This document shows, piece after piece, positions 23,889-59,831 of a stretch of 64,000 nucleotides of DNA. The notes under the pieces were generated by a model. The model made no database searches. It worked only from the letters and a program-made list of their open reading frames with translations, and had not been told where the DNA came from. The position numbers and the translations under genes are program-made. The number at the start of each line of letters is the position of its first letter. The first letter of the stretch is position 1. The DNA is from Alphaproteobacteria bacterium (GTDB taxonomy: Bacteria > Pseudomonadota > Alphaproteobacteria > UBA9219): NCBI GenBank assembly GCA_013286365.1, contig JABDFY010000002.1, positions 20,062 through 84,061 of the forward strand, written 5' to 3'.

Positions 23889-23890
23889 AA

Positions 23891-24535: not shown

Positions 24536-25083
24536 TGCGTCGTGCCGTTTATCTTGACCGGGATGGTGTCATCAATTCAGTCGCTATTCGTGAAGGCAAG
24601 CCCCACCCCCCGTCGGCGCTTGATGAATTAAAAATTCTGCCGGGCGTTAAAGAAGCCCTGAATGATTTGAAAGCCGCGGGATTTCTTTTAATTGTTGTTA
24701 CCAATCAGCCGGATGTGGCGCGTGGTAAAACTTCCCTTACTATTGTTAACAGCATCAACAATTACCTTAAAGACAAACTCCCGCTCGATGCTATTTATAC
24801 CTGCTTTCATGACGATGCGGATCAGTGTGAATGTAGGAAGCCGAAACCCGGTCTATTGTTGGCGGCTAGAGAGGCTTTCGATATTGACCTCAATTCAAGC
24901 TACATGGTAGGAGACCGCTGGCGGGACATCGAAGCCGGACGTCGCGCGGGCTGTAAAACCTTTTTCGTAGACCACGGATATGATGAGGAAAAGCCCAAGT
25001 TCTCCGACTATACAACAAGCTCTTTACGTGATGCCTCCCGCCTAATTTTGAAAAAGGAAAATGTAAATGTCTCGGGTAAATGA
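24535..25083 (+). CDS. gmhB: HAD-IIIA D,D-heptose 1,7-bisphosphate phosphatase
   Basis: AVYLDRDGVIN, VVTNQ, CxCRKPKPG and GDRWRD motifs. TAATG junction with gmhA. Confidence 0.85.
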   Translation: MRRAVYLDRDGVINSVAIREGKPHPPSALDELKILPGVKEALNDLKAAGFLLIVVTNQPDVARGKTSLTIVNSINNYLKDKLPLDAIYTCFHDDADQCECRKPKPGLLLAAREAFDIDLNSSYMVGDRWRDIEAGRRAGCKTFFVDHGYDEEKPKFSDYTTSSLRDASRLILKKENVNVSGK

Positions 25084-25783
25084 TTTGAAGGTCAAAATTT
25101 TTGCTGACGGTGCCGATAAGGCGGGCATGTTGGAAATGTATGCTAAGCCGTTTGTCAAAGGTCTTACGACAAATCCAACACTTATGCGCAAGGCAGGAAT
25201 TACTGACTACCGCGCATTTGCTAAAGATATTCTTTCCGAGATTAAGGATAAATCGATTTCGTTCGAGGTATTTTCGGATGACTTTGTCGAAATGGAACGC
25301 CAGGCAATGGAAATTGCCAGTTGGGGAAGCAACGTTTATGTAAAAATTCCCGTTACCAATACCAAACGCGAAGCTTGCTACAAACTTGTTAAACGACTAG
25401 CGGATAAAAAGGTAAAACTCAATGTCACGGCACTCATGACATTGGCCCAAGTTCGCGATGTAGTGGCGGCACTTAATCCAGATGTAGCCAGTTACGTTTC
25501 AGTATTTGCTGGCCGCATAGCAGACACGGGCAAAGATCCTGTCCCCTTGATGGCGGCAGCCGTTGAAATGATCAAGGTGAATGCTCACGCTGAACTTATT
25601 TGGGCCAGTCCACGAGAACTATTGAATATTTTCCAAGCCGATGCGATTGGATGTCACATTATTACAGTTACAAACGACGTACTTAAGAAGCTATCTCTTG
25701 TTGGGTACGACCTCGACGAATATTCTCTCGATACCGTCAAAATGTTCTATAACGATGCTGTAGCCGCCGGGTTTGGACTATAG
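25067..25783 (+). CDS. transaldolase-family protein (short, Fsa/TalC-like type)
   Basis: FADGADKAGMLEMY...GLTTNPTLM...VKIPVT motifs. Overlaps the gmhB stop by 17 nt. Confidence 0.8.
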   Translation: MSRVNDLKVKIFADGADKAGMLEMYAKPFVKGLTTNPTLMRKAGITDYRAFAKDILSEIKDKSISFEVFSDDFVEMERQAMEIASWGSNVYVKIPVTNTKREACYKLVKRLADKKVKLNVTALMTLAQVRDVVAALNPDVASYVSVFAGRIADTGKDPVPLMAAAVEMIKVNAHAELIWASPRELLNIFQADAIGCHIITVTNDVLKKLSLVGYDLDEYSLDTVKMFYNDAVAAGFGL

Positions 25784-25867
25784 GACTAGACACCAAGCGC
25801 CTTGCCAGGAATTGTGCCGCAAGCTAGTGTGGCGTTTACTGGATCTGGCCAGAAATATCATGGTTAT

Positions 25868-26593
25868 ATGATGAGTACCGATATCTGTCCGCCACGTTTC
25901 AAGTGGCCAAAAAGCTTTCCACCGTTGACAGCAGAACAAGAGCGCATCAGTGATGACTTTGTTCGTCACTGGCATGAGGTTCTTCCCCGACGTTACGGTA
26001 TGATTGAACGCTTCAATCACGGCTTTCCCGTTCGCCACGGTGATATTAAAGCAGGGTGCAAGACCATTGAAATTGGTGCCGGGCTTGGCGAGCATCTTCG
26101 CTATGAGAATCTCAATATACAGGAATACCACTGTCTGGAATTACGACAGATTATGGCCGAGAATATTCAAAAGTGTTCACCCAAGGTAAAAGTTACAGTC
26201 GGAGATTGTCAGAAACGATTACCATTTGATGATGGGTACTTTGACCGTATCGTCGCCGTCCACGTTCTTGAGCATCTTCCTGACCTACCAGCGGCTATTT
26301 CGGAAATGGCCCGACTGCTAAAGCCTAACGGTGTGTTTCACATAGTCATTCCATGCGATCCGGGCTGGCTCTATAGGCTGACACGCCTGATATCTGCCGA
26401 ACGCATTTTCAAACAGCGCTATAAGCAGTCCTATAATTGGTTTATTCATCGCGAGCATATTAATTCGCCAGACGAAATTCTGTCCGTTCTTGGGCGCTAC
26501 TTTTATATCGAGAAGAGGGAGTTTTTTCCTTTTCGCATTCCTCTGATCAATCTTAATTTGTGCCTTGGGCTCGTTGCACGAAAAAAAGCGTAA
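25868..26593 (+). CDS. class I SAM-dependent methyltransferase
   Basis: IEIGAGLGEH motif I and LKPNGVFHIVIP. The start is set at the first ATG (25868); the track's TTG at 25802 is also possible. Confidence 0.7.
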   Translation: MMSTDICPPRFKWPKSFPPLTAEQERISDDFVRHWHEVLPRRYGMIERFNHGFPVRHGDIKAGCKTIEIGAGLGEHLRYENLNIQEYHCLELRQIMAENIQKCSPKVKVTVGDCQKRLPFDDGYFDRIVAVHVLEHLPDLPAAISEMARLLKPNGVFHIVIPCDPGWLYRLTRLISAERIFKQRYKQSYNWFIHREHINSPDEILSVLGRYFYIEKREFFPFRIPLINLNLCLGLVARKKA

Positions 26594-29271: not shown

Positions 29272-30111
29272 ATGAATCAGCGCGAACACCAAATGCTCGA
29301 TATCTTAAAACGCGGGCGCGATGAGTTTGGTTATCTTGCCGTAAAAGCTGAATTTGAAGCTGAAGGTACGCGTATCGAAGAGCTCTTGCGTTTGATTGAA
29401 ATCGCCCGCAAGGCTAATTTAAAAATTGGCCTTAAGGTTGGCGGTTGCGAGGCTATGCGCGATCTTATCGAAAGTAAGCAGCTCGGCGTCGACTATATCA
29501 TCGCACCGATGATTGAAAGCGTTTATGCCCTGACGAAATTTGTTGATGCAAAAAATAAAATCTATTCAAAGGAAGAACGCGAAGACACAGATTTCTTGTT
29601 TAACCTGGAGACGGAAAGCGCTTTTCGTGCACTCGATGGTCTTGCTGCCGAGGCTGGCAAACCAAACGGCGCAAAAGGCATCGTTTTTGGCCGCGTCGAC
29701 TTTTCGCTGTCGATGGGTTTGTCGCGGGATTCCATCAACGATAAAACTGTTACCGATCATGTTATTGCGACGGCCAAAATCTGCAAACAAAAGAATCTCG
29801 ACATGGTAGTTGGTGGTGGTGTCTCAATGGATGCTTTGCCAGCCCTACGTGAGATCAACGCAGTCCACTTAACGCGGTTTGAAACACGCAAAGTCATTTT
29901 TGGCTCCCACGCCCTCAAAGAAAAGTGCGTCGAAAAGGGTCTTTTGAATGCCGTTCATTTCGAGTTGCTATGGCTGTTGAACAAGCGCGATTTCTATGGC
30001 GCCATACAGCAAGAAGACGCTAAGCGCATCGACATGCTTGAGAAGCGCTGGCACGTCCTGCAGACCGAAGCTGAAAACGAGGCGCCGGTCAAACGTGCCG
30101 CTAGTGCCTAA
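29272..30111 (+). CDS. HpcH/HpaI aldolase / citrate-lyase-beta-like TIM-barrel protein
   Basis: AEFEAEGT..., [10 protein letters not shown] and [11 protein letters not shown] segments resemble this family. Substrate unknown. Confidence 0.55.
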
Positions 30112-30138
30112 TGGCCGCCCAACGCGATTATCCTTTCC

Positions 30139-30849
30139 ATGGACAGTGAGCGTGGCCGCAATAAACTTTTGCTCTTTGGCGCCAACGGAGCCATAGGATC
30201 TGCTCTGCATGAAGGGTTCCGCCAAGATGGCTGGGACGTCGTTGCCACGAGCCGTCATGCTGTTTCCGGCGTCGATTGGTTGAAAGTTGATCCATTTGCG
30301 TCCGATTTTAATCCAGCTCTCCTTGATACCGGCGGTAAGTACACAGCCGTTTGTTGGGCCCAGGGCGCTAATATTAACGACAGCATCTATGACGTTGATC
30401 CGCAAAAGCATCTTGAACTTTATCAAGCGAACTGCCTATTCATCGCCGTAACTTTACAATTATTATTGGCGCGCAAATTGTTGGCGCCAGCCTCGCGCTT
30501 GTGCGTTATTAGTTCGATTTGGCAAAATCTTGCGCGGCAGAATAAATTTTCCTATAGCGTGACCAAATCTGCCTTGCAGGGACTGGTGCTGTCGGCATCT
30601 GCCGATCTTGCGGCGGATGGACATCTTATCAACGCGATTTTACCCGGCGTACTCGATACACCAATGACGCGACGTAATTTGACAACCCAACAAATTGATG
30701 CCGCAAGTTCGGCAACAAAATTTAATCGCCTGCCGCAATTGAAGGACGTTGTATCTCTTGCAAGCTATCTTTGTTCGCCTAAAAATACCGGCATAACCGG
30801 ACAATTTCTTGCCGCTGATCTTGGTTTTAGCCATGTACGCATCATTTGA
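30139..30849 (+). CDS. SDR-family oxidoreductase
   Basis: LLFGANGAIGSA Rossmann motif and YSVTK catalytic motif. Confidence 0.75.
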   Translation: MDSERGRNKLLLFGANGAIGSALHEGFRQDGWDVVATSRHAVSGVDWLKVDPFASDFNPALLDTGGKYTAVCWAQGANINDSIYDVDPQKHLELYQANCLFIAVTLQLLLARKLLAPASRLCVISSIWQNLARQNKFSYSVTKSALQGLVLSASADLAADGHLINAILPGVLDTPMTRRNLTTQQIDAASSATKFNRLPQLKDVVSLASYLCSPKNTGITGQFLAADLGFSHVRII

Positions 30850-31915
30850 AGTGGCGTCTTCATCCGGTGCCTATGGTGTCGAGATTGAAGCGGGTGCATT
30901 TAAGAAAACTTTAACTGCGTCAAAAGATGCTGTCGCGATGTGCGACGAACGTTTTGTGTCTTCCATCCAAAAGGCGGGTCTAAAAACTATCGCCATTCCG
31001 GCCGAAGAGGCCGCTAAGAGTCTGGACGCAATACCGACTTACATTATAAATCTTCGCAAACTTGGCGCCAACCGCCGTACGCCTTTGTTGGCTGTAGGCG
31101 GAGGTATCGTACAGGATGTTGCTGCGTTTTGTGCCGCCATCTATATGCGCGGACTTAGTTGGACTTATATTCCAACGACACTTTTGGGCATGGCAGATTC
31201 TTGTATAGGCGGTAAGTCCTCAATTAATGTTGGTGAATATAAAAACATTGTTGGTACGTTTTTACCGCCACAGAAAATCCTCATCGATCCGGATCTGGCC
31301 GCTACCTTGTCACCCGAGCAGATAATTGCAGGCCTCTGCGAAGCTGCAAAAATATGTTTTTGTCGTGGCCCTAAAGAATTTCAGGCTTATATGAAAATAG
31401 CGCCGACCCTCACAATGGACGAACGCGCAATAACGGAAATTATTACAACGAGCCTTCTGGCTAAAAAGTGGTTTATCGAGACGGATGAGTATGACCGCAA
31501 AGAAAGGTTGTTGCTCAATTTCGGCCACACTTTTGGCCATGCTCTGGAAGGAGCCACACATTTTCGTGTCAGTCACGGGATTGCCGTTGGCCTCGGCATG
31601 CTCTGTGCGCTGGCGTTTGGTCGGCGACTTGGCCGCTCCTATGAAGGAGCTTTGCTGCAATCCGTTCGTGACATGGAAAGTCATATAGATAAGCTTCTGC
31701 AGCAACATCCAACACTGCCAAAGCAGCTCGCTGGGGTTGAAGTATCGGAAGTATTGGACCGTTTTGCTGCTGACAAAAAGCATACAAGTGACCACTTTAG
31801 TATAGTTATGGTAAATGCGTCTGGGGCTGCTGTTTTGGAAAACCTGTCGAAAACGGATGCCACGCGCGCTCCGCTTGGCGATGCCATTGCGGACGTATTA
31901 AAGTGCTACGCGTAA
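30833..31915 (+). CDS. 3-dehydroquinate synthase family protein (sugar-phosphate cyclase superfamily), non-housekeeping context
   Basis: GGGIVQDVAAF, DSCIGGKSSIN, KNIVGTFLPP, RLLLNFGHTFGHALE and HGIAVGLG correspond to DHQS-family motifs. Confidence 0.75.
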   Translation: MYASFEVASSSGAYGVEIEAGAFKKTLTASKDAVAMCDERFVSSIQKAGLKTIAIPAEEAAKSLDAIPTYIINLRKLGANRRTPLLAVGGGIVQDVAAFCAAIYMRGLSWTYIPTTLLGMADSCIGGKSSINVGEYKNIVGTFLPPQKILIDPDLAATLSPEQIIAGLCEAAKICFCRGPKEFQAYMKIAPTLTMDERAITEIITTSLLAKKWFIETDEYDRKERLLLNFGHTFGHALEGATHFRVSHGIAVGLGMLCALAFGRRLGRSYEGALLQSVRDMESHIDKLLQQHPTLPKQLAGVEVSEVLDRFAADKKHTSDHFSIVMVNASGAAVLENLSKTDATRAPLGDAIADVLKCYA

Positions 31916-31931
31916 TAGGAAAATATGCACA

Positions 31932-33710
31932 ATGAAATATAGTGATATCCTTGCCGATTGGCTTGTAAGTCTTGGCTATACCACGTGTTTTTATGTTGCT
32001 GGCGGCAACATCATGCATCTATTGGAAAGCTGCAGCCGCAAGATGAAGATTATCTGCACTGTGCATGAAGTTGCGGCCGGCATAGCGGCCGAGTACTTCA
32101 ATGAAGTTGCGGCTGGCAAAGAACGTGCCTTTGCTCTGGTCACGGCGGGTCCTGGCCTCACCAATATAGTAACCGCCTTTGCTGGTGCCTGGTTGGAAAG
32201 TCGTGAACTGTTGGTTCTGGGGGGACAGGTGAAGGTTCCCGATCTAAGTCGAGGCAAGTTGCGTCAACGCGGAATTCAGGAAATAGATGGCGTAAATATT
32301 GTTAAGCCGATCACTGTACGTTCAGTGCTCATGGACGATGTTATGGATCGCGCGACTTTTTCGGAAATCGTCGAGGCCAGCAGCCGAGGCCGTAAGGGGC
32401 CCGTCTTTATAGAAATACCGCTTGATATTCAGGGCCGAACTCTAGAGCCCGATACATTGGAAAAAAAGAGCGCAATCACTCACAAATCTGCCATCGCCGC
32501 AATTCCGGAAAACGATCTCGCAAAACTAGCGGAACAAGTCCGTAAGGCCGAACGGCCTTTACTATTAATTGGTGCCGGTATTGATCGGCGCACCTCAGAA
32601 GAGGTTAGGACGCGACTTGATGTTATGGGCTTGCCGCTGACAACAACATGGAATGGCGCCGATCGCGTAGCCTTTGATCATCCTCTCTATTTCGGTCGTC
32701 CGAATACGTGGGGTATGCGTTACAGTAATCTTGTCCTTCAGCAGGCCGATCTCCTGATTGCGCTAGGTACAAGACTTGGTCTACAGCAGACCGGTTTTAA
32801 TTGGCAGGAGTTTGTTCCTGGCGGAAAAGTTGTTCAAGTCGATTGTGACCGCGCTGAATTGGAAAAAGGCAATCCGAAAGTGGCTTGGCCGATTTGTGGC
32901 GATGCCAATCAAGTGCTGCGCTATTTATCGAAGGCTGATCTTGGCCAGCACGAAGCCTGGGTCAAATATTGTAAGACGATCAAATCGGCGTTGCCTCTTG
33001 TTGAAGAGGGCAATACGACGGGGACCAGTTTTGTTTCACCCTATAAGTTTGTCACCGAACTTTCAAAATTATGCAAATCAACAGATGTGATTGTTCCGTG
33101 CAGTAGTGGCGGGGCCTTCACCGTCATGATGCAAACTTTTGCTCAGCAATTGGGGCAGAAGATGGTGACCAATAAAGGTCTCGCATCGATGGGTTACGGA
33201 TTAAGTGGTGCCATAGGGGCCGCTGTTGCAGCGGAAGGCCAACGCACGATTTTGGTCGAAGGCGACGGCGGCTTCTCACAGAATTTGCAAGAAATCGGCA
33301 CAGTCGCAGTCAACAAACTTAATCTGAAAATATTTATATTTATGGATAACGGCTATGCGTCAATTCGGATGACGCAGAGCAATTATTTTGGTGGGCGCTA
33401 TATGGGCTGCGATACGTCCTCCGGCCTTGGTTTGCCAAACTGGGAGAAGCTTTTTGCCGCCTATGAGGTGCCAGCGATGCGCCTCGACACTAATTATGCC
33501 CAAGACATGGCATTTAAGCAGTTATTCGCGTGTGAAGGGCCGGCGGCCTTTATTGTGCCGGTCGATCCAAAACAGACCTATTTCCCTAAAATTATGAGCC
33601 GGGTGACCGAAACAGGGGGTATGGCCTCCAATCCACTGCATTTGATGTCCCCGCCTCTTGACGAAGACACCTTCAAACAGGTAGGCCGTTACTTGCCGCC
33701 ATCAACATAA
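31932..33710 (+). CDS. thiamine-diphosphate enzyme, acetolactate-synthase-large-subunit / YerE-like
   Basis: 592 aa with N-terminal Pyr domain GGNIMHLLES..., VTAGPGLTN, and ThDP motif GDGGFSQN...FMDNGYASI. Confidence 0.8.
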   Translation: MKYSDILADWLVSLGYTTCFYVAGGNIMHLLESCSRKMKIICTVHEVAAGIAAEYFNEVAAGKERAFALVTAGPGLTNIVTAFAGAWLESRELLVLGGQVKVPDLSRGKLRQRGIQEIDGVNIVKPITVRSVLMDDVMDRATFSEIVEASSRGRKGPVFIEIPLDIQGRTLEPDTLEKKSAITHKSAIAAIPENDLAKLAEQVRKAERPLLLIGAGIDRRTSEEVRTRLDVMGLPLTTTWNGADRVAFDHPLYFGRPNTWGMRYSNLVLQQADLLIALGTRLGLQQTGFNWQEFVPGGKVVQVDCDRAELEKGNPKVAWPICGDANQVLRYLSKADLGQHEAWVKYCKTIKSALPLVEEGNTTGTSFVSPYKFVTELSKLCKSTDVIVPCSSGGAFTVMMQTFAQQLGQKMVTNKGLASMGYGLSGAIGAAVAAEGQRTILVEGDGGFSQNLQEIGTVAVNKLNLKIFIFMDNGYASIRMTQSNYFGGRYMGCDTSSGLGLPNWEKLFAAYEVPAMRLDTNYAQDMAFKQLFACEGPAAFIVPVDPKQTYFPKIMSRVTETGGMASNPLHLMSPPLDEDTFKQVGRYLPPST

Positions 33711-33755
33711 TGTGGGCGACAGGCTGAAATCATTGCTTTTTAGGGCGGGCTGGAC

Positions 33756-34553
33756 GTGGTTGAAATTGGAAAAATAAAAGCTGTTATCCTGGCTGGCGGC
33801 AAAGGGTCACGCATCAGCGAAGAGTCCGTATTCAAGCCAAAACCGCTTATTGATATCGGCAATCACCCCATTTTGTGGCATGTCATGAAAACTTATGCCC
33901 ATTACGGCGTGAAAGACTTCATTATCTGCCTTGGTTATAAGGGCCATAAGATCAAAGAATATTTCTTTCACTACAATCTTTATAACGCCGACGTTACCAT
34001 CGACATTCACAATGGCGTCAAAATTCATGAAAGCGCTGCCGAGGATTGGCGGATCAGTCTTATTGAGACGGGCGAAGAAACGATGACGGGTGGACGCATC
34101 AAGCGCATCCGAAAATATCTTGGCAACGACGAAGTGTTTTTTCTTACCTATGGCGATGGCGTGGGCAATGTTGATATAGGGGCCAGCCTGGCTTTCCATC
34201 AAAAGCACGGTAAATTAGCGACGGTTACCGCCGTGCGGCCATTGGCACGCTTCGGTTCGCTCGACATCAAAAACGATCAAGTTCGCGCGTTCGTAGAGAA
34301 ACCAACCGGTGAGGGCGGCCTTATCAATGGCGGATTTTTCGTTGTTTCGCCTAAAGCCATCGATTACATCAAGGATGACACAACCTTATGGGAAAAAGAG
34401 CCGTTGGAAGGTCTGGCGCGCGATGGCCAATTGATGGCTTTTGCACATCAAGGCTTCTGGCAACCCATGGATACGTTACGCGATCGCCACCACCTTGAAG
34501 AGTTATGGGCGGGCGGTAAAGCTCCGTGGAAAGTTTGGCAGGACCGTTCATGA
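33756..34553 (+). CDS. rfbF: glucose-1-phosphate cytidylyltransferase
   Basis: KAVILAGGKGSRISEES..KPKPLIDIG..PILWHVMK. ATGA overlap with rfbG. Confidence 0.9.
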   Translation: MVEIGKIKAVILAGGKGSRISEESVFKPKPLIDIGNHPILWHVMKTYAHYGVKDFIICLGYKGHKIKEYFFHYNLYNADVTIDIHNGVKIHESAAEDWRISLIETGEETMTGGRIKRIRKYLGNDEVFFLTYGDGVGNVDIGASLAFHQKHGKLATVTAVRPLARFGSLDIKNDQVRAFVEKPTGEGGLINGGFFVVSPKAIDYIKDDTTLWEKEPLEGLARDGQLMAFAHQGFWQPMDTLRDRHHLEELWAGGKAPWKVWQDRS

Positions 34554-35659
34554 CGCCGGAATTTTGGCAGGGAAAAAAGGTTTTTGTTACCGGTCACACA
34601 GGCTTTAAGGGCGGCTGGCTGTGTTTACTCTTGCGCCAATTAGGCTCGACAGTTCACGGCTATTCTCTGGCGCCGCCAACAGTGCCCAATCTTTTTACGC
34701 TAGCTCATGTCGGCGACTGTTTGGACCATCAGATCGGTGACGTTCGCGATTTGCTGATCCTTACTGCGGCCATCAAGGCGTTTAAGCCCGATATCGTTTT
34801 ACATTTGGCGGCGCAGGCTTTGTTGCGGCCTTCGTATGAGACACCTCTTGATACTTATTCCACCAATGTTATGGGCACAGTCAATGTGTTGGAGGCTGCT
34901 CGTCAGACCAATGTTCCCGTAACCCTGATTATTACCAGCGATAAATGTTATGAAAACCGCGAAACCATTTGGCCTTATCGCGAAACTGATCCCATGGGCG
35001 GGTATGACCCTTACAGCAGCAGTAAGGGCTGCGCCGAACTAGTTGTTTCTGCTTATGGCCGCTCTTATTTTACTGATGGGCACAAAACATTGGCCAGCGT
35101 GCGCGCTGGAAATGTTATTGGCGGTGGCGATTGGGCACGCGATCGCTTAATGACAGATGTAATTTATGCGCTGATGAACAACAAACGCCCCATCATTCGT
35201 CGGCCTAAATCAATACGACCATGGCAGCATGTACTCGAGCCGCTTTCGGGATATCTTCGCGCTGCTGAGTATATGTGGCAATTCAAGCCGCGTTCGCCAC
35301 AAGCATGGAATTTTGGCCCAAATGCTGAAGGCGAAGCACCAGTTGCAGAAGTCGCCAACGATGTTTGTCGCTTGTGGGGACAAAGCTCAGGTATTGAAAT
35401 AATCGAAGATCCTAACGCCGTGCATGAAGCAGGTCTGCTGCAGTTAGACTCAACAAAAGCCCGGCATGAGCTTCAGTGGCGCCCACGTTGGCCTTTGCCC
35501 AAAGCCCTTGCTATGTTGGTGGAATGGTTCAAGAAATATGAGGCCAAGGCTGATATGAACGCAGTTACACTTGAGCAAATTGCAGCCTATAGAAAAGAAG
35601 GCGAACCAACGGTTTCACCTCAGACCCAAACTCTTAGAGCAGCAGGAAAACGCGCATGA
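34550..35659 (+). CDS. rfbG: CDP-glucose 4,6-dehydratase
   Basis: [20 protein letters not shown] and YSSSK motifs. ATGA overlaps on both sides. Confidence 0.9.
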
Positions 35660-37011
35660 CCGCCGTCACGGCAAAATCAAATACACCTCTCAGCGAAGCT
35701 GAGCAGTTGAAGGCCCAAATTCTTGAGCTAACCGAGCGTTACAGTAAACTTGCCCATGCTCCGAAAGCGTTCACGCCCGGCCAATCGTCAGTGCCTGTGT
35801 CGGGCCGCGTGTGGGGACCTGAAGAAGTTTGCGCGTTGGTTGATTCAGCCCTGGAGTTTTGGCTAACAACTGGACGGTATAACGATCTGTTTGAGAAGCG
35901 TCTTGCGAAATATCTCGGTGTATACCACACACTAACTTGTAACTCAGGCTCATCCGCTAATCTATTGGCGGCCTCGGCTTTGACAAGTCCTATGCTCGAA
36001 GACAAGGCCTTGAAACCGGGCGATGAAGTTATTACCTGCGCAACCGGATTTCCAACGACCGTTAATCCCATCATACAAAACGGGTTGGTGCCGGTGTTTC
36101 TTGATGTACATATTCCGACTTATAATATTCGTGCTGACTTAATTGAAGCTGCGCTCTCAGATCGCACAAGAGCCATTATGGTGGCACATACTTTAGGCAA
36201 TCCCTTTGATCTCGACACTGTTATGGCTGTGGCCAAGAAGCACAACTTGTTTGTGATAGAAGATACTTGTGATGCGCTTGGAGCTACTTACAACGATCGC
36301 AAGGTTGGAACCTTCGGCGATATCGGTACGGTGAGCTTTTATCCTGCACATCACATTACGATGGGTGAAGGTGGTGCTGTCTTTACCGGCAGTGCGCGAT
36401 TTAAGCGCATACTTGAATCTATTCGCGATTGGGGTCGCGATTGTTGGTGCGCGCCCGGCAAAGATAATACATGTAAAAAGCGTTTTGAATGGCAATTGGG
36501 TGAGTTGCCCTATGGCTATGACCACAAATACACCTACTCGCATATTGGCTATAATCTTAAGATCACCGATATGCAGGCGGCTGTAGGGTATGCACAGCTC
36601 GATCGTCTCGAGGGATTTATTGCTGCCCGTCGGGCCAATTTTGTACGCCTGACAGAGCAATTCAAAACAATGGAAGATCATTTTATCTTGCCCGAGCCAA
36701 CACCCAAATCCAACCCGTCTTGGTTTGGGTTTCCAGTTACAGTTCGTAGCAATACGCCCTTTAAGCGTGACGACCTCGTCAAATATTTAAACGATTGTAA
36801 AATTGGCACACGCCTATTGTTTGGCGGTAATATCTTACGTCAGCCCTATATGTTGGGACGCAAATATCGTGTACACGGCTCGCTTGAAGCCAGCGATATG
36901 GTCATGAACAATACGTTTTGGATCGGCGTTTACCCCGGCCTGCATCAGCCGGAAATTGACTATATTGCCGACTCTATTAGGACGTTTTGCAAAAACAGCA
37001 AAACCGCTTGA
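35656..37011 (+). CDS. rfbH: CDP-4-keto-6-deoxy-D-glucose 3-dehydrase (E1, RfbH/DdhC type)
   Basis: DegT/DnrJ/EryC1 fold plus the E1-type Cys cluster [12 protein letters not shown] (C-x-C-x7-C). Confidence 0.85.
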
Positions 37012-37052
37012 TACGAAGCCTTAAAAGCGGCGCGTGACGTGAGTATACAGCC

Positions 37053-38015
37053 ATGAAATTTATGTCCTTCGGTAGCCAGTTAACAGACAGGCTGCGCGCA
37101 AATGATGTGCGCTTTGCCATTACAGGTGGTGGCGGTTGGCTGGGGCAGGCGACGTTAGAAATGTTGGATCAGGTGCTTGGCGCTGCCTTTGCCGAGCGTG
37201 TGAGTGTTTTCGGCTCAAAGGCTCGCGATATCAAGCTACGTTCTGGTCGCGCTGTACCTTGTTTTGAGCTTAAGGAAATTGTGAAACTTCCGCGCGGCCC
37301 CCACTATTATCTGCATTACGCTTTTTTGACCAAAGACAAACTTACCACCCAGTCTAACGACACTTTTATCAGAGGCAACGATATCATTCGTAGCTATGTC
37401 ATCGAAGCCATAAACAATAATGAATGCTGTGGTCTATTTTTACCCTCTTCAGGCGCCGTTTATCGCGCCGACGGCAAAATCGACACCGATATTGTTGCCA
37501 ATGCCTACGGCGTTATGAAAGCGCAGGACGAGAACATTTTTTCTGCGTTAGCTACAAAGCAAAATTTCCCGGCCGTTATTCCACGTGTCTTTAATCTTAG
37601 CGGACCTTATATGAATAAGGTGGATCTCTATGCGTTGGGCTCTATGTTGCGCGATGCGTTGGCGGACAGGCCAATCGTGATCAATGCTGCGCATCGTGTG
37701 TTGCGATCTTATGTGCATGTTGCCGATGTTATTCGATTGGCCATCAGCATGTTGCTTGAAGCCCAAAATAATATTTCGGTATTTGATACAGCAGGCGACC
37801 AGGTTGTCGAGCTTTCCGAGTTGGCTCAGCAAATCCGCACTGTATTAAACATGCCGCATCTGGAGATAAAACGGCCTGTCGTCGAAGCTGGCAAGGAAAA
37901 CAGGTATATTGGAAGGCCAGGGGAAATGGCTGCGCTTGCCAAGCGTTTCGGTTTTACCCTATGTTCCCTTGGCAGCCAAATCGAAGATACGGCAAGTTGG
38001 CTGCTGTCGGCGTAG
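37053..38015 (+). CDS. NAD(P)-dependent sugar epimerase/reductase (extended SDR); candidate 4-keto reductase of the CDP-sugar pathway
   Basis: ITGGGGWLGQ Rossmann motif and YGVMK catalytic motif. The role is inferred from position only. Confidence 0.55.
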   Translation: MKFMSFGSQLTDRLRANDVRFAITGGGGWLGQATLEMLDQVLGAAFAERVSVFGSKARDIKLRSGRAVPCFELKEIVKLPRGPHYYLHYAFLTKDKLTTQSNDTFIRGNDIIRSYVIEAINNNECCGLFLPSSGAVYRADGKIDTDIVANAYGVMKAQDENIFSALATKQNFPAVIPRVFNLSGPYMNKVDLYALGSMLRDALADRPIVINAAHRVLRSYVHVADVIRLAISMLLEAQNNISVFDTAGDQVVELSELAQQIRTVLNMPHLEIKRPVVEAGKENRYIGRPGEMAALAKRFGFTLCSLGSQIEDTASWLLSA

Positions 38016-38041
38016 TTTTATAATAGGGACCCATCGGTATC

Positions 38042-39160
38042 ATGAATAACTTTACGGCAACTTCTTCAAATCTTAATGAATTAATTTATCCCGATAAACG
38101 CAATCCATATTACATTGTTACGCCAAAATATATTCGCTCGTCGGCTGGAATTCGGGCGCTTCATTTGCTATGTCACAGCTTAAATCGTCTAGGCTATCAG
38201 GCTTATATCGTTCCGTTTCCACCGCATCCCCATGAATTGGCGGTTGCCCCGGACTTGTTGACGCCGGTCATAAACAATACGCTAATCCAGTTCCACTTCG
38301 AGAACAAACAATGCCCAATTATTATTTACCCCGAAACAGTGGCGGGTAATCCCTTTAAATCGCCGCTCGTCGTGCGCTACGTCTTAAATTTCCCCGGCTT
38401 TCTTGGTGGTGACAAAGTCTATCCGGCGAGCGAAATATGTTTCGGCTATTCGCAAGTTCTCGCAGATGCCGCGAATGCGAGTGACAATGTTCTGTTTCTT
38501 CCGGCCACAGACACGCGCATATTTAACCCAGGTAGTAAACAATTACCACGTTCCGGCAGCTGTTTTTATGCCGATAAATATAAGAATATCCATAGCGGCA
38601 GATTGTTCGATATTACAAGTAAGAGTACGGAAATTACACGTGACTTGCCTGATTCACAAACGCCCGAGGAAATCGCCGATCTCTTTAGACATTCGGAGAT
38701 ATTCTACTGTTATGAAAACTCGGCGCTCGCTATCGAGGCCGTTTTATGTGGCTGTCCGGCTGTGTTCCTGCCCAATCCTTATTTGACAGAAGTCATAGCG
38801 ATCAAGGAGTTGGGTATTGATGGATTTGCCTGGGGCACGGCACCTGAGGAAATTGATCGTGCGAAGGCAACTGTCGAAAAGGGTGCCCAGAATTATTTAA
38901 GAACCTATCAAAAATATTGGGAACAGCTGGAGCGTTTCGTCAATATTACGCAAGAACGTGCTGCATCCACACCCTATGTGGAGATCGTCGACATACCAAT
39001 CATGACTTTAAATGAACCCGGAATATCCTTTAGGGAGTTGACGAAATTCTGTTGGCATGTGGTACGGCATGAGGGGGCGCTATCCTTACTTAAAAAGATT
39101 ATCCGTAAAATTGGGCGCCTAAAAATTGCAGTCATTTTTTATTGGGTAAGTAATAAATAG
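38042..39160 (+). CDS. hypothetical protein, possibly a GT-B-like glycosyltransferase
   Basis: C-terminal half contains YCYENSALAIEAVLCGCPAVF, resembling the GT4 E-x7-E region. Weak call. Confidence 0.35.
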   Translation: MNNFTATSSNLNELIYPDKRNPYYIVTPKYIRSSAGIRALHLLCHSLNRLGYQAYIVPFPPHPHELAVAPDLLTPVINNTLIQFHFENKQCPIIIYPETVAGNPFKSPLVVRYVLNFPGFLGGDKVYPASEICFGYSQVLADAANASDNVLFLPATDTRIFNPGSKQLPRSGSCFYADKYKNIHSGRLFDITSKSTEITRDLPDSQTPEEIADLFRHSEIFYCYENSALAIEAVLCGCPAVFLPNPYLTEVIAIKELGIDGFAWGTAPEEIDRAKATVEKGAQNYLRTYQKYWEQLERFVNITQERAASTPYVEIVDIPIMTLNEPGISFRELTKFCWHVVRHEGALSLLKKIIRKIGRLKIAVIFYWVSNK

Positions 39161-40070
39161 CGCTCAGTATTACACTGACAGTAATTTGAACCGCTAAAAT
39201 CAGAAGTCTAAAGCCTAAAGCAAAAGAAGCCCCTGCTGCGGCTGGCATATGCCAGAGCGTAAGGAGATAAGCCCAGCTCCATTCCGCAATGCCAAGATTG
39301 GCGGGGGTTAGTGGAATAAGGCTTGGAAGCGTTGCCAGTGGTGTCGCATAAGCGATGATTTTTGCCGGAATAGCAATATTGAGTGCGCTAACACCTAGCA
39401 CAAGTTGAGTGATCACGAGACCGTAGCGGGCCAAAGAAAGCAACATAATCTTCGTTATCAATTGCGGCGCCAACAAACCTTGACGGCGCTCATCTTTCAG
39501 TCTCTGCAACCATGGGTACTTAAGTTTGGTCATGATGGGCCACGAGAGAATATTTGGTAGCCGTACCAGAATAAACCCGGCAACCAACAATAAGAGCGCA
39601 GCGAACATCAACCACAGAACAAAACTAAATCCAAAGACGATTTGGAAAAGGCTGGCGGGAATAAGTATGACAGCAATAAGAAAGTCAAAGCCAAGATCAT
39701 AAACGGCGTTTAAAAGACTGTGCTTAAACGAAGTGTTTTGCTGTAAACGCATGACGGCCGTGCGGCATAAAGCTGTGGCAACGGATTGTGGTAAGAACTG
39801 GCCAAGCAGTACGGCATGCGCCGTGTAATATAGATAAAAATGTGGCCGCGGTTCTTTGCGGTTATGGGTAATCAACTGCCATTTCAGTGCGCCCAGGTAA
39901 ATAAAGGAAGAGGAACAGATGAGCATGACAAAAAATATTGGCCATCTGATATGCGCCGCTATATCGACCAGTATTCGCCAAGAGACGCCGGTTGCGAGAC
40001 ATAAACCGACGACGAGGCTTATGCCGAGAATGAAGGCCAGAAGACTTTTCAGACAGAGTTTTAAACTCAC
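39132..40070 (-). CDS. flippase-like / lysyl-phosphatidylglycerol-synthase TM-region family membrane protein
   Basis: 312 aa, about 8 TM segments, typical N-terminus (...IFFVMLICSSSFIYLGALKWQLI). 4-nt overlap with the upstream GT4 gene. Confidence 0.6.
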   Translation of the reverse strand: MSLKLCLKSLLAFILGISLVVGLCLATGVSWRILVDIAAHIRWPIFFVMLICSSSFIYLGALKWQLITHNRKEPRPHFYLYYTAHAVLLGQFLPQSVATALCRTAVMRLQQNTSFKHSLLNAVYDLGFDFLIAVILIPASLFQIVFGFSFVLWLMFAALLLLVAGFILVRLPNILSWPIMTKLKYPWLQRLKDERRQGLLAPQLITKIMLLSLARYGLVITQLVLGVSALNIAIPAKIIAYATPLATLPSLIPLTPANLGIAEWSWAYLLTLWHMPAAAGASFALGFRLLILAVQITVSVILSAIYYLPNKK

Positions 40071-41254
40071 CTGGTTGTCCGCTTACACATAGTTTGTAAA
40101 AGATCGTCGTAATAACCACCGATGCGCGACCAAAGCCAAAAATCTTGGACAAAGTTTGCCAGATCCCATTTGGCTTGTTTGAGCGGTAAGAGAGGACGCT
40201 GCGTCATGAGCTTCTTTGTCCATAACTGAGCCGTATGTTTGACATTTTGTGGGTCAACACTGGCCGTTAAGAGGTAGGGGGAAGCGATTTGACTACCGGC
40301 AGCTACGGAAGGGCTGCATAGTACAGGCAAGCCACAAGCCATGGCCTCTTGAATAACCAGTGGGAATCCTTCGCCATAGCTTGGTAAAATTAGCATGTCC
40401 GCCGCTTGATATAACTCAGCCAGCGTTGCATCGGCGCGGTCTTTAAAGACGTGGATATTGGGAAGACGCCATTGATTGGGATCGATGGGTCCTCTACCGA
40501 CCAGCCAAAAACGCCACTCGGGCAACGATTCTGCAAGATGCCGAATAACTGACAACCCTTTTCTCTCGACGAAACGACCAACGAACAACAATACCGGTTG
40601 ATCACGGCGAAGGGCAAACTGATCGCGAAGGACTTGTCGCTTTTCTGGCAGCACCGGTTGGAAAATATCGATATCAACGCCATTCGGAATAATTTTAACC
40701 GGCGTTTTGAAACTGATGGCACGATAATAGTGTTCGGCAACAGCATCACTGATAAAATTTACCTGGTTTGCGAGCTTCAGCATTTTGTGCGTTATGTAAC
40801 GATCTGCACATTTCATGATCCAACGTAAAGCAGCGTTGCGGTAAGTAATGGGTCCGATATGTTGGGTTATCAGAACTGGTTTTTTCATCCACCGCGCCAT
40901 GATGAAGGCTGAAATATTACCCATATAAAGTGTATCATGTAGCCAGACGATGTCGGATGCGGCCACGGCTCTTTTTAACCGCCATAAACTGCGCGGCCCC
41001 CACAATGGCAGTGGTAAGCCGCACATGCGTTCAAGAAAATTCAATACCCGCATGGGCTGCATAACTTGACCGGGTATAGTAGGCGGTAAATCACAATTGC
41101 TAGCCACCCAGGTGAAACGAAAGTTTCCAACGATAGAAATTTCGACAATAAGATTATTAACAACGCGTTCAATACCGCCTCCGTGGGCGGCGTAATAGTG
41201 GCTGACGACGAGGACCTCGCGGCAGCGCTTGGGGATGTTGATTGGCTCAGTCAT
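40067..41254 (-). CDS. glycosyltransferase family 4 (GT-B fold)
   Basis: LILPSYGEGFPLVIQEAMACGLPVL (E-x7-E) motif. Confidence 0.85.
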   Translation of the reverse strand: MTEPINIPKRCREVLVVSHYYAAHGGGIERVVNNLIVEISIVGNFRFTWVASNCDLPPTIPGQVMQPMRVLNFLERMCGLPLPLWGPRSLWRLKRAVAASDIVWLHDTLYMGNISAFIMARWMKKPVLITQHIGPITYRNAALRWIMKCADRYITHKMLKLANQVNFISDAVAEHYYRAISFKTPVKIIPNGVDIDIFQPVLPEKRQVLRDQFALRRDQPVLLFVGRFVERKGLSVIRHLAESLPEWRFWLVGRGPIDPNQWRLPNIHVFKDRADATLAELYQAADMLILPSYGEGFPLVIQEAMACGLPVLCSPSVAAGSQIASPYLLTASVDPQNVKHTAQLWTKKLMTQRPLLPLKQAKWDLANFVQDFWLWSRIGGYYDDLLQTMCKRTTR

Positions 41255-42315
41255 CAGAGCAAATTATGCCGAATTTTTTCTATGGCTTCATGTTGGTATT
41301 TCAACACCTCAAGCGCGTTAGCAACACCGATACCTTCTAACGGTAGGCCCGTATGAATGGCGGTAGCAAAACGATTAAAGACCTCATCATTTCCGTAATC
41401 AAGGCGGCCGCGAAGGTACGCAAGGCCGTTCGGAATATGTTGTGACCAATGTTGCGAGAACGCATAGAAACTTGTGCGTAGTATTTGCAGTATATTATGT
41501 GCACCGTCATTAGGCAGCCGAATATAAATATCGCGAAAAATATCAAGAATACCCACGGCTTTAGTGCCCGTGACGACGACAAACCACTCGCTTACAGCGC
41601 TATCGAATTGGCAATCTATGGTAACAGGAATATCGCCATCCGTTTTGTAAAGTAAATTTAGGAGTGAAGGTGTTGATGTTTTGTCGTGGGCGCCTGTAGC
41701 GTGGCCGTGACGTAATTTTAAGTCTGAGCCGGCAAGGCGCCGCAATAAATAAAAAAAATGCGGACTTTCGTCATAAAATAACCCTAAGGGTAGCTCTGGA
41801 TACCAATGTGGCAGGCGACGTAAGGGGTTGCCAAACTGTACGGCGGCAAGGCGTCGGGTTGGACCCAGTCTATTGTGCGCCAAGTCATATTCTAATTTTT
41901 GTGTCGCACGACTAAACTGGAAATTATGTACGACACCGAGGACACGCTTGTTGGCAGCGGCCGCAGCGACCATCGCATCGCCTTCTTTTACGTCCATGGC
42001 AAACGGTTTTTCAACCAGCACGTGCTTACCGAGCCTAAGGGCTTCCAAAGTTAGGGCTGCATGTGCCAACGGGGATGTTCCGATGCAAAGTGCATCCACG
42101 TCGCTCAACCAAGCAACATTTTTTAGATCATCAGCTGTATCAAAGTTTTTAACATTAAATCTTGCGGCGCATTGCTGAGCACGTTCTCTGTTACGGTCAA
42201 TAACGCCAATAAGCCGAAATTGGGGTTGCCGTAAAATTGCTGGAATATGGCGATGGGTCGCAACCCAGCCAAGACCAATGCAGGCGATACGGAGTGGAGG
42301 TGAAGCTGTGATCAT
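41254..42315 (-). CDS. Gfo/Idh/MocA-family oxidoreductase
   Basis: The internal ATG at 42315 gives MITASPPLRIACIGLGWVATHRH. EKPFA motif present. Confidence 0.8.
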   Translation of the reverse strand: MITASPPLRIACIGLGWVATHRHIPAILRQPQFRLIGVIDRNRERAQQCAARFNVKNFDTADDLKNVAWLSDVDALCIGTSPLAHAALTLEALRLGKHVLVEKPFAMDVKEGDAMVAAAAANKRVLGVVHNFQFSRATQKLEYDLAHNRLGPTRRLAAVQFGNPLRRLPHWYPELPLGLFYDESPHFFYLLRRLAGSDLKLRHGHATGAHDKTSTPSLLNLLYKTDGDIPVTIDCQFDSAVSEWFVVVTGTKAVGILDIFRDIYIRLPNDGAHNILQILRTSFYAFSQHWSQHIPNGLAYLRGRLDYGNDEVFNRFATAIHTGLPLEGIGVANALEVLKYQHEAIEKIRHNLL

Positions 42316-42495
42316 AAGGTGATGATATAGAATAACCAGAAAACGCAATCTACATAATGCAGCAACCCGGCGGAAGCGGGAAGCCAAAGAATATATGTGA
42401 TAACACGATAGCTACACCCGCTTATATATCGCCACGTGTTTTACCGCTGCGGAGAGCACAATAATAGGTGCACCAACCTAAAGCAGGGTTGCACT

Positions 42496-48440: not shown

Positions 48441-48449
48441 GGAAATCTC

Positions 48450-49073: not shown

Positions 49074-49082
49074 TTGCGCAGC

Positions 49083-49826: not shown

Positions 49827-49978
49827 GTTAAGGTCCCCGAAGGTTACGACTTAGCCAAGGAATGCCGCTTAAAACCGGTTTTTCCGTGGATAGGCTTGCG
49901 TTATAAACTTGCTGTTAACTTTGGATTGCTGAAAGGCTAGTTTCATCCGATTATGAATGACTGATTCGAGGATCGGAT

Positions 49979-52844: not shown

Positions 52845-52876
52845 ATTGGTTTTGTGACAACAGGAGACTCTTTCCA

Positions 52877-54103: not shown

Positions 54104-54292
54104 GCCTGAAGCAAGGTTATTGCCCCGAAAATAGGTAATGAGTTGAAAAGCTTTGATATTTCACTCCTCTAAGGGCAATTAAAGGCTTTGTTAACAAGTT
54201 CACTGATAGATTATTCAGGAATAACAATAAATTGAGGCAATTTTTGCCAATTGAAAATTTACGTTTTCGGAGGCATTTTCGGAAGCGAAACG

Positions 54293-55393: not shown

Positions 55394-55455
55394 TGGGTGG
55401 TATTTTAGGGCGAAGAATAACTATGTTTTTCAAATGCTTTTGGGAAATTAGGAAT

Positions 55456-55485: not shown

Positions 55486-55516
55486 GTCTTAAATTTTTTA
55501 TATTGGGGAGGCACAG

Positions 55517-55906: not shown

Positions 55907-55922
55907 GTACTGGTCTTTCGAT

Positions 55923-59816: not shown

Positions 59817-59831
59817 TCGGAAGGAAGCAGG

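Follow-up and report, generated by a model that had tools for sequence, protein, structure and literature searches.

Nine closely spaced, co-directional genes form one run on the forward strand (29272-39160) of the 64-kb stretch of DNA analyzed here (the window), and likely represent a widespread, conserved operon for a CDP-3,6-dideoxy sugar bearing a long carbon branch. We predict the product to be a CDP-3,6-dideoxyhexose with a long, hydroxylated, methyl-terminated branch at C4, i.e., a caryophyllose-type 12-carbon sugar (probability of roughly 0.6), and infer both its C6 branch length and its stereochemistry. A branched sugar had been suggested from the letters of the DNA alone (hereafter, the sequence-only reading), and is likely, being well supported by the gene module and the caryophyllose-type scheme described below.

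Table 1. Genes of the run and two upstream genes, with family calls based on Pfam and NCBIfam profiles (positions are those of the window).
Gene product	Position	Strand	Length	Profile matches and motifs
HpcH/HpaI-type aldolase (class II, pyruvate-type), divergent	29272..30111	+	279 aa	PF03328
Short classical SDR	30139..30849	+	236 aa	Pfam adh_short_C2; motifs GANGAIG, YSVTK
DHQS-family protein, distinct subfamily	30833..31915	+	360 aa	Pfam DHQ_synthase and DHQS_C
YerE-like ThDP-dependent carboligase	31932..33710	+	592 aa	Three ThDP domains (Pfam)
RfbF/DdhA, glucose-1-phosphate cytidylyltransferase	33756..34553	+		TIGR02623, 400 bits vs cut-off 300
RfbG/DdhB, CDP-glucose 4,6-dehydratase	34550..35659	+		TIGR02622, 460 bits vs cut-off 278
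RfbH/DdhC (E1), PMP- and [2Fe-2S]-dependent 3-dehydrase	35656..37011	+		PRK15407, 733 bits vs cut-off 423
Extended-SDR reductase (candidate)	37053..38015	+		Pfam Epimerase (NAD epimerase/dehydratase family); motifs GGGGWLG, YGVMK
Soluble protein without family, last gene of the run	38042..39160	+	372 aa	
Transaldolase, upstream of the cassette	25067-25783			
SIS/GmhA protein, upstream of the cassette	23891-24535			

The aldolase, SDR, DHQS-like and ThDP genes recur as a group beside rfbF/G/H at 12 further loci, which come from four phyla (an Alphaproteobacteria MAG, Granulicella, Acidobacteriaceae/Terriglobus, Sulfurirhabdus, Actinomycetota MAGs, Cellulomonas xiejunii and Sphingomonas). At each related locus, the DHQS-like gene directly follows the SDR gene; the aldolase and ThDP genes are at most a few kb away from this pair in nearly all of them, and rfbF/G/H accompany the module in most loci with sufficient flank. 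None of 71 ordinary aroB loci carries any of the module partners. Rather than being a separate cassette fused to a yersiniose pathway, the first three genes belong with the ThDP gene in a single conserved module, a point missed in the sequence-only reading. Translation of the DHQS-like gene is taken to start at ATG 30833 (alternative, 30809), giving a 17-nt overlap with the SDR stop; in 11 of 13 loci, a start codon is placed at precisely this distance, 17 nt ahead of the last base of the SDR stop, and the overlap is kept across phyla. The aldolase start (ATG 29272; alternative frame start at 29152) is the one chosen in the sequence-only reading, which also correctly described rfbF, rfbG (ATG 34550) and rfbH as coupled by ATGA overlaps (34550-34553 and 35656-35659).

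The acceptor pathway is assigned on strong family matches. RfbH carries C205-X57-C263-X-C265-X7-C273, and His232 occupies the position of the PLP lysine in aminotransferases; on sequence grounds, this is the E1 pattern, and the E1-type Fe-S motif noted earlier (C-x-C-x7-C) is its C263-X-C265-X7-C273 portion. The partner reductase, E3, had been reported as missing from the window, and our searches agree: no Fer2 or FNR-type domain was detected in any ORF of at least 150 aa across the 64 kb, and neither a plant-ferredoxin Cys motif nor a combination of RxY[ST] and an NAD-binding motif in ORFs of at least 120 aa. The absence of E3 is general for this type of cluster and not a peculiarity of this window. 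Electrons for E1 would be supplied by a reductase encoded elsewhere.

Several lines of evidence indicate that the ThDP enzyme is YerE-like rather than an acetolactate synthase, an assignment that is well supported at the sequence level and matches the class proposed earlier. It scores under every AHAS equivalog cut-off (NCBIfam), and its best PDB matches are JanthE (8rph, E 8e-82) and PpYerE (5ahk, 1.5e-59), followed by AHAS. The enzyme contains the motifs HEVAAG and EGDGGF and is 54-68% identical across related cassettes (33% in locus L008). The extended-SDR gene at 37053-38015, already put forward for the YerF role, encodes GxxGxxG and YxxxK motifs, and an Epimerase-family gene neighbors either the ThDP gene or the aldolase gene in five related loci (L001, L002, L009, L084 and L085), although at only 25-47% identity; it is a plausible candidate for a YerF-type enzyme that would reduce the branch at its C1' ketone. 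The protein encoded by the last gene of the run has no Pfam or PDB match and yielded an unusable single-sequence AF2 model (pLDDT 33); a 58% identical homolog occupies the same position in L001, and our guess is that it may be a glycosyltransferase.

The aldolase scored 31.5 bits against PF03328 (HpcH_HpaI; cut-off 25) and had no PDB match by sequence or profile. Its AF2 model (pLDDT 89) shows a class II pyruvate-aldolase fold, with best Foldseek matches to SbnG, HpaI, HpcH and SwHKA (TM 0.56-0.65). Identity to characterized HpcH enzymes is 11-19%, i.e., it is very divergent, compared with 70-84% to its homologs and 54-74% within related cassettes; the family comprises 380 clusters at 50% identity (E<=1e-30). 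A 52%-identical aldolase in Novosphingobium humi adjoins rfbF/rfbG without DHQS-like, ThDP or RfbH genes, and hence the family is not strictly bound to this pathway.

The DHQS homolog forms a monophyletic subfamily (median 50% identity within it) with 24-38% identity to AroB, and falls under the cut-offs of both aroB (245 versus 305) and TIGR04425 (290 versus 400). In similarity searches, it matches DHQS (E 6e-40) better than ValA (1e-25) or DDGS (2.5e-18). The motifs ascribed to it previously were located at R233-x3-N237-x-G-H240-x2-G-H244 and H256-G257. Further residues kept are R114, D130, K136, N146, E178, K181, K219 and K323/324, and the catalytic and substrate residues are invariant across 37 subfamily members. 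Their spacings are those of A. nidulans DHQS, and they include the Lys/Arg pair that binds the carboxylate of DAHP. As judged from sequence, the full residue set argues for a substrate with both a carboxylate and a phosphate. Subfamily-specific switches occur at Q102, Y120, M128, C132, S137, S138, P153, C183 and D229. Compared with AroB and the wider superfamily (DOIS, EEVS, DDGS, EVS), the protein shares fold and domains, and keeps the metal, NAD-cycle and phosphate/carboxylate residues of DHQS, but belongs to a clade separate from AroB and sits with nucleotide-sugar branching genes rather than in an aromatic or cyclitol biosynthesis context. It probably helps to build the branch and makes no ring, and differs from the superfamily in this proposed non-cyclizing outcome, for which we know of no precedent among sugar phosphate cyclases. 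Work by Bartlett and Knowles on DHQS reportedly showed that the enol-pyranose intermediate cyclizes spontaneously to dehydroquinate; a non-cyclizing outcome would therefore require active protonation or immediate trapping.

In the proposed pathway, RfbF, RfbG and the E1-type RfbH would convert glucose-1-phosphate to CDP-4-keto-3,6-dideoxyglucose, as their strong family assignments predict. The aldolase may join pyruvate and erythrose 4-phosphate into a DAHP-like 3-deoxyheptulosonate 7-phosphate, which would provide the branch with its 4-hydroxy-2-keto acid backbone. The DHQS homolog would then serve as an NAD+/metal-dependent phosphate eliminase, performing only the initial half of the DHQS reaction (transient oxidation of C5 by NAD+, loss of phosphate through beta-elimination, and re-reduction), which would yield the terminal methyl of the branch and leave the 2-keto group unconsumed by cyclization. 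Reduction of the resulting C6 ketone by the translationally coupled SDR would give 3,7-dideoxyheptulosonate, the exact donor for a 1,3,4,5-tetrahydroxyhexyl branch. Homology and published work on relatives suggest that the YerE-like enzyme decarboxylates this long 2-keto acid and that the resulting acyl anion attacks the C4 ketone of CDP-4-keto-3,6-dideoxyglucose, after which the extended SDR would reduce the C1' ketone of the branch. Alternatively, the DHQS homolog and SDR may act first, turning erythrose 4-phosphate into a 4-deoxytetrose, and the aldolase would follow to give the same keto acid. The five non-ddh genes equal in number the five needs of the scheme (aldol reaction, loss of phosphate, reduction at C6, ligation by the ThDP enzyme and reduction at C1').

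Among the closest known systems is the caryophyllose locus of Mycobacterium marinum, whose lipooligosaccharide sugar has a 1,3,4,5-tetrahydroxyhexyl branch (PMC5706390). As annotated, it encodes a DHQS family protein (MMAR_2329), an aldolase/citrate lyase (MMAR_2331), a ThDP protein (MMAR_2332), a G1P cytidylyltransferase (MMAR_2334), RfbH (MMAR_2335) and a CDP-glucose 4,6-dehydratase (MMAR_2336), with a separate housekeeping AroB (MMAR_2177; PMC12395582 supplement). Judging from annotation and actinobacterial MAG orthologs, the gene set of MMAR_2329-MMAR_2336 is the same as here, although in another phylum and gene order, and no E3-type entry is present among the readable genes of that locus. 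Caryophyllose is lost in mutants of 2331, 2332 and 2333 (PMC9306805, PMC5706390), and the literature searched assigns no role to MMAR_2329. Steitz et al. [quoted passage not shown] There, a pyruvate aldolase supplies the 4-hydroxy-2-keto acid, which the YerE-like enzyme adds to CDP-4-keto-3,6-dideoxyglucose before reduction; the caryophyllose-type logic is matched here. The erwiniose aldolase, however, resembles BphI and is paired with an acetaldehyde dehydrogenase, in contrast to the divergent HpcH type with a DHQS homolog and SDR, a pair not discussed in the main text of that study (PMC9306805). Yersiniose A biosynthesis in Yersinia pseudotuberculosis (YerE/YerF, DdhA-D) shares the acceptor pathway, the ThDP class and a reductase after the carboligase. 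It is not known to have a DHQS-like gene or extra SDR, and its cluster carries the E3 gene ddhD/ascD. According to the literature, the branch that YerE forms from pyruvate is C2, and the pathway has no aldolase step.

Among known relatives with related ThDP enzymes, the branch is C4 in erwiniose, C6 in caryophyllose and C7 in gastriose (PMC9306805), which would be consistent with a cluster of this type building a different branch length here, such as a C5, C7 or other non-caryophyllose branch from glyceraldehyde 3-phosphate, ribose 5-phosphate or an unphosphorylated aldehyde. We consider this unlikely, as the full DAHP-type binding set, with its spacing unchanged, suggests that the substrate is a seven-carbon 2-keto-3-deoxy acid 7-phosphate, and C6-branched caryophyllose is the sole product known from loci of this gene content.

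It is less likely still that the DHQS homolog genuinely cyclizes its substrate, either a DAHP-like acid or sedoheptulose 7-phosphate, to give a carbocyclic unit, with the ThDP enzyme adding a C2 branch from pyruvate. Its DHQS catalytic residues are all intact, all characterized members of the superfamily cyclize to our knowledge, and the transaldolase and GmhA to which the sequence-only reading drew attention are indeed encoded upstream. Dehydroquinate-type ring closure, however, destroys the 2-keto acid required of a ThDP donor, and the conserved module lacks enzymes that would activate or transfer a cyclitol. The carbocyclic idea put forward earlier, with sedoheptulose 7-phosphate as substrate, also loses ground because heptose and transaldolase genes travel with the cassette in none of the 12 related loci, while the DHQS residues are kept. 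The closer match to DHQS compared with ValA and DDGS, and the acyclic branch made in M. marinum from the same annotated gene set, argue in the same direction. The order of aldolase, reductase and DHQS homolog, with its intact residues, also resembles early shikimate steps, so that these genes might encode an auxiliary shunt (pyruvate and E4P to DAHP, dehydroquinate, and then quinate or shikimate) merely linked to a yersiniose-type operon. This is very improbable given the linkage with ThDP and rfbF/G/H genes in four phyla, its absence from the aroB loci, the distinctness of the subfamily from AroB, the separate aroB retained by M. marinum, and a cassette lacking dehydroquinase and shikimate dehydrogenase domains (Pfam).

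A caryophyllose-type branched sugar is thus our preferred product. The polysaccharide encoded around the operon is ABC-transporter-dependent, and we propose that the branched sugar would enter this polysaccharide, as opposed to the lipooligosaccharide that carries caryophyllose in M. marinum.

The nine genes of the cassette run in one direction with intergenic spacings of -17 to +45 nt (see table), and the ATGA overlaps between rfbF and rfbG and between rfbG and rfbH described in the sequence-only reading were borne out. Both SDRs retain their cofactor motifs and YxxxK intact. A single-sequence AF2 model of the 372 aa protein encoded by the last gene was unusable (pLDDT 33), and a promoter and terminator scan across the operon gave a number of sites not above chance. 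The window sequence has matches in soil-metagenome assemblies.

Features of the cassette and of its surroundings in the window (positions are window-based; score cut-offs in parentheses)
Feature	Position	Strand	Assignment or content
HpcH/HpaI-type aldolase	29272-30111	+	Pfam PF03328, 31.5 bits (25)
Classical SDR	30139-30849	+	Pfam
DHQS-family protein	30833-31915	+	Pfam, two domains
ThDP enzyme	31932-33710	+	Three ThDP domains, PF02776, PF00205, PF02775
RfbF	33756-34553	+	TIGR02623, 400 bits (300)
RfbG	34550-35659	+	TIGR02622, 460 bits (278)
RfbH	35656-37011	+	PRK15407, 733.5 bits (423)
Extended SDR	37053-38015	+	Pfam Epimerase
Protein without family match, 372 aa	38042-39160	+	No Pfam or PDB match
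RND efflux operon	2420-12022	-	Two tandem AcrB-family pumps (1097 and 1033 aa, MdtB/MdtC-like), membrane fusion protein, outer-membrane factor, small "Metal_resist" periplasmic protein
SAM methyltransferase	16798-17694		
GDP-D-glycero-D-manno-heptose-type set	22156-25783	+	GHMP kinase, nucleotidyltransferase, GmhA, GmhB, short transaldolase/FSA-type protein
SAM methyltransferase	25802-26593		
Protein of 771 aa	26610-28925	-	About 15 hydrophobic segments, no Pfam match; divergent from cassette
Genes downstream of cassette	39132-42387	-	LPG_synthase_TM-family membrane protein, GT4, GFO oxidoreductase
Dot/Icm-type type IVB secretion run	47973-61587	+	Two DotI/IcmL paralogs, DotH/IcmK, TrbI/DotG-like, DotM, several ORFs without Pfam match (one of 1008 aa); adjoins aconitase and DUF1036 protein

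A scan of genomes with a DHQS-like profile gave 80 loci among the matches listed, mostly ordinary aroB, which served as a negative control. Loci of the DHQS-like subfamily came from an Alphaproteobacteria MAG, Granulicella sp. dw_53, Acidobacteriaceae and Terriglobus MAGs, Sulfurirhabdus, three Actinomycetota MAGs, Cellulomonas xiejunii (CP101987.1) and a Sphingomonas sp. An SDR gene lies directly upstream of the DHQS-like gene in every subfamily locus with flanking DNA; a ThDP gene and an aldolase gene are found within a few kb in nearly all, and rfbF/G/H with an Epimerase-family reductase alongside in most. Module partners were found at none of the 71 aroB loci (among the matches listed). 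The four genes previously left unassigned (aldolase, SDR, DHQS-like and ThDP) are one conserved module, of which the DHQS-like gene and the SDR are inseparable parts in four phyla. Translational coupling of the two genes is conserved as well: 11 of 13 loci have a start codon for the DHQS-like gene at precisely the same distance, 17 nt, ahead of the last base of the SDR stop codon. This junction, at 30833-30849 in the window, is the same in loci L001, L002 (Granulicella), L005-L009, L012, L084 (C. xiejunii) and L085 (Sphingomonas), again in four phyla, and its sequence is recognisably conserved (..GCCATGTCCGCATC.TTTGA..). L001 retains the junction, although the start of its DHQS-like gene has moved 155 nt downstream. 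In related loci, conservation of the module does not extend to the window's heptose and transaldolase genes. A transaldolase and GmhA feeding the DHQS-like enzyme, as suggested in the sequence-only reading, were rejected as a substrate source, since every related cassette lacks both.

The R-x3-N-x-GH-x2-GH and HG motifs reported for the DHQS homolog are present, and the protein keeps R114, D130, K136, N146, E178, K181, K219, R233, N237, H240, H244, H256 and K323/324, with the same spacings as what we take to be their counterparts in Aspergillus nidulans DHQS (R130, D146, K152, N162, E194, K197, K250, R264, N268, H271, H275, H287 and K356). This catalytic, metal- and substrate-binding set is invariant in 37 of 37 subfamily members; subfamily-specific switches include Q102, Y120, M128, C132, S137, S138, P153, C183 and D229. 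Homology searches, for each of which the best 120 matches were listed (mostly metagenome proteins), indicated thousands of proteins 50-60% identical to the DHQS homolog, and ordinary AroB proteins are 24-38% identical to it. A grouping with housekeeping AroB, considered earlier, was not recovered: neighbour-joining analysis of 37 subfamily members with 50 AroB sequences places the former in a single long-branched monophyletic group, sister to AroB, and the protein scores 245 bits against the AroB equivalog TIGR01357 (cut-off 305). It also misses the cut-off of TIGR04425, AroB-related putative sugar phosphate phospholyase (289.6 bits vs 400). Overall similarity, as distinct from the 14-residue fingerprint, is highest to DHQS (6e-40), followed by BtrC (2e-32), ValA (1e-25) and DDGS (2.5e-18).

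The ThDP enzyme, whose gene is directly 5' of rfbF, aligns over its full length with JanthE and PpYerE, including HEVAAG (catalytic Glu) and EGDGGF (GDG ThDP motif). Its best PDB matches are JanthE (8rph, E = 8e-82) and PpYerE (5ahk, 1.5e-59), the lead of PpYerE over the top AHAS (3.7e-55) being modest. All AHAS equivalog cut-offs were missed (TIGR00118, 256 bits vs 538; other AHAS models far below), and the window ORFs scanned contained no ACT or ALS small-subunit domain. Acetolactate synthase is ruled out as an assignment by scores far below every AHAS cut-off, and the choice between YerE and IlvB raised previously falls on the side of the characterised YerE-like enzymes.

The aldolase had no PDB match by single sequence or by profile. 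Its AF2 model is confident (pLDDT 89), with SbnG, HpaI, HpcH and SwHKA as the top Foldseek matches (probability 1.00, TM 0.56-0.65), and the Pfam assignment together with the predicted TIM-barrel fold indicates that it is probably a member of the HpcH/HpaI class II pyruvate aldolases. Residues E113, D143, R34, R63 and R141 are invariant and are candidates for the Glu/Asp metal ligands and the pyruvate-binding Arg. The family is small and strongly conserved (380 clusters at 50% identity, E <= 1e-30), and homologs among the matches listed are 70-84% identical. On a Novosphingobium humi megaplasmid (L086, NZ_CP103869.1, 10037-12807), a 52%-identical aldolase lies directly 3' of rfbF and rfbG and is followed by a Wza-like exporter and a GT2; DHQS-like, ThDP and RfbH genes are absent within 12 kb, and this locus is a putative variant use of the aldolase family with CDP-4-keto-6-deoxyglucose. 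The remotest homolog found (32% identity), on Ilyobacter polytropus pILYOP01 (L087, 10001-10774), neighbours organic-acid catabolism genes (aconitate hydratase, isocitrate/isopropylmalate-type dehydrogenases and a 2-hydroxycarboxylate transporter), a setting consistent with keto-acid aldolase ancestry.

RfbH exceeds the curated equivalog cut-off for CDP-4-keto-6-deoxyglucose 3-dehydrase (E1), and the E1-type Fe-S motif noticed earlier is present as C205-X57-C263-X-C265-X7-C273. His232, 27 residues past C205, occupies the position of the PLP lysine, which matches what we take to be the defining pattern of Yersinia pseudotuberculosis E1 (His for the PLP lysine, C-X57-C-X-C-X7-C). The absence from the window of its partner reductase E3 (AscD/DdhD/RfbI) held up, as ferredoxin and FNR-type domains and motifs are lacking in every ORF of the 64 kb. 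A motif scan likewise found no E3 within 10 kb in nine related loci, and the Pfam assignments for the Cellulomonas and Sphingomonas loci include no ferredoxin-type reductase. E1 activity can be sustained in vitro by surrogate reductases, and a reductase whose gene lies elsewhere most likely supplies its electrons. At the edge of the Cellulomonas cluster (L084, 19656-20654, minus strand), a thioredoxin-reductase-like flavoprotein (Pyr_redox_2) adjoins a 4,6-dehydratase-type gene; that it might substitute as electron donor for E1 is pure speculation. Among the genes of the M. marinum caryophyllose locus, as annotated in the available part of a supplement (PMC12395582), there is also no E3-type entry. 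Since M. marinum makes a 3,6-dideoxy sugar and E3 is missing both from that part of its locus and from every related locus examined, its absence is a trait of this cluster type.

A general scheme for acyl-branched sugars was proposed, and in part demonstrated, by Steitz et al. in 2022 (PMC9306805). A pyruvate aldolase provides a 4-hydroxy-2-keto acid, which a YerE-like ThDP enzyme (ErwE, MMAR_2332, MyGE) attaches with decarboxylation to CDP-4-keto-3,6-dideoxyglucose, and a reductase completes the branch (PMC9306805). The window locus brings together the corresponding genes: an aldolase, a YerE-like ThDP enzyme, an NAD(P)H reductase and those for CDP-4-keto-3,6-dideoxyglucose. In M. marinum, mutants in 2331-2333 lack caryophyllose (PMC9306805, PMC5706390), which is 3,6-dideoxy-4-C-(D-altro-1,3,4,5-tetrahydroxyhexyl)-D-xylo-hexose (PMC5706390). 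These mutants accumulate LOS-II*. In the part of the annotation available, MMAR_2329 is a "3-dehydroquinate synthase family protein" separate from the housekeeping AroB (MMAR_2177), and MMAR_2331 to MMAR_2336 are, in order, an aldolase, the ThDP protein, a GT2, glucose-1-phosphate cytidylyltransferase, RfbH and CDP-glucose 4,6-dehydratase (PMC12395582). DHQS-family, aldolase, ThDP and rfbF/G/H genes are thus shared at the level of annotation, so that the cassette matches, in its gene content, a locus with a known product. It adds a metagenomic member to the known acyl-branched (caryophyllose-type) sugar cluster family. The published scheme covers the ThDP branching step and, in the part available, leaves unexplained the origin of a methyl-terminated polyhydroxy keto acid (PMC9306805). 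The literature searched, with a supplementary, a dissertation and a 2024 in-silico source beyond reach, gave no role for the DHQS-family gene. What is new here is the recognition of the DHQS-like gene and the SDR as integral, conserved parts of the cluster family, together with a specific role that we propose for them.

Upstream of the cassette lie the GDP-heptose-type set, transaldolase, methyltransferases, glycosyltransferases and Wzm/Wzt. A heptose is probably a further constituent of the polysaccharide, and the two SAM methyltransferases could O-methylate either this heptose or the branched sugar. The 771 aa protein may act on the branched sugar as a GT-C-type transferase or polymerase; a GT87 membrane glycosyltransferase is found near the M. 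marinum locus in the available part of its annotation (PMC12395582). In the Granulicella, Cellulomonas and Sphingomonas loci, a GT2 and a GtrA-like flippase adjoin the cassette, which suggests that the branched sugar goes to polyprenyl phosphate and that its addition takes place outside the cytoplasm; in the window, the LPG_synthase_TM-family protein and its neighbours lie downstream instead.

Strong family assignments predict that RfbF, RfbG and E1 lead toward CDP-4-keto-3,6-dideoxyglucose, and homology together with published assays on relatives supports attachment of a long 2-keto acid to it by the ThDP enzyme, which would be followed by reduction. For the supply of that acid, we propose that the aldolase would join erythrose 4-phosphate and pyruvate into a DAHP-like acid (a 3-deoxyheptulosonate 7-phosphate), on which the DHQS homolog would stop halfway through DHQS chemistry, after C5 oxidation, loss of the C7 phosphate and C5 re-reduction, leaving the 2-keto group free. 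The coupled SDR would trap the product before cyclisation by reducing the new C6 ketone, yielding 3,7-dideoxyheptulosonate. We give this role of the DHQS homolog and SDR a probability of roughly 0.45. The proposal is supported by the match of five non-ddh genes (those other than the CDP-3,6-dideoxyhexose genes) to five chemical requirements, as well as by the two points raised below against a cyclised product. Decarboxylative ligation and C1' reduction would then produce exactly the 1,3,4,5-tetrahydroxyhexyl branch, and erythrose 4-phosphate would give the D-erythro configuration of the last two stereocentres of caryophyllose, one of which the SDR would reset; a branch of another length is unlikely. 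In the reverse order, the DHQS homolog and SDR would act on erythrose 4-phosphate and the aldolase last, giving the same acid, but conservation of the carboxylate-binding Lys/Arg pair favours the aldolase-first order.

The enol-pyranose intermediate of DHQS cyclises spontaneously. A non-cyclising outcome would consequently need active control, which is beyond proof by sequence, and this is the main, chemical weakness of the proposal. A true cyclase would make a carbocyclic unit, with a C2 branch derived from pyruvate, and the invariant DHQS residues would suit such an enzyme. A cyclised product, however, could no longer serve as ThDP donor, and the module has no enzyme to activate or transfer a cyclitol, and we consider this outcome improbable. 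Hence, where the sequence-only reading had allowed for a branched-chain or even carbocyclic sugar, the acyl-branched gene set favours the former and the lack of cyclitol activation and transfer disfavours the latter. A shikimate-type shunt unrelated to the sugar would draw on the same residues; the subfamily stands apart from AroB and travels with the module, and we regard such a shunt as very improbable.

M. marinum, plant-associated Burkholderia relatives and Rhodopseudomonas display caryophyllose-like long-branched 3,6-dideoxy sugars at their surface, and these sugars shape host recognition. If the non-cyclising proposal is true, it would reveal a route to terminal C-deoxygenation that had gone unrecognised and would supply 3,7-dideoxyheptulosonate, the long-sought donor for caryophyllose-type sugars of mycobacteria, acidobacteria and proteobacteria. 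A non-cyclising DHQS homolog would also widen the chemistry of a textbook enzyme family and give biocatalytic access to deoxy keto acids for use in ThDP carboligations. The DHQS-like gene and SDR provide a concrete hypothesis for the missing keto-acid step, testable with four enzymes, and the quartet of aldolase, SDR, DHQS-like and ThDP genes is a genomic signature predicting such sugars in uncultured soil bacteria.
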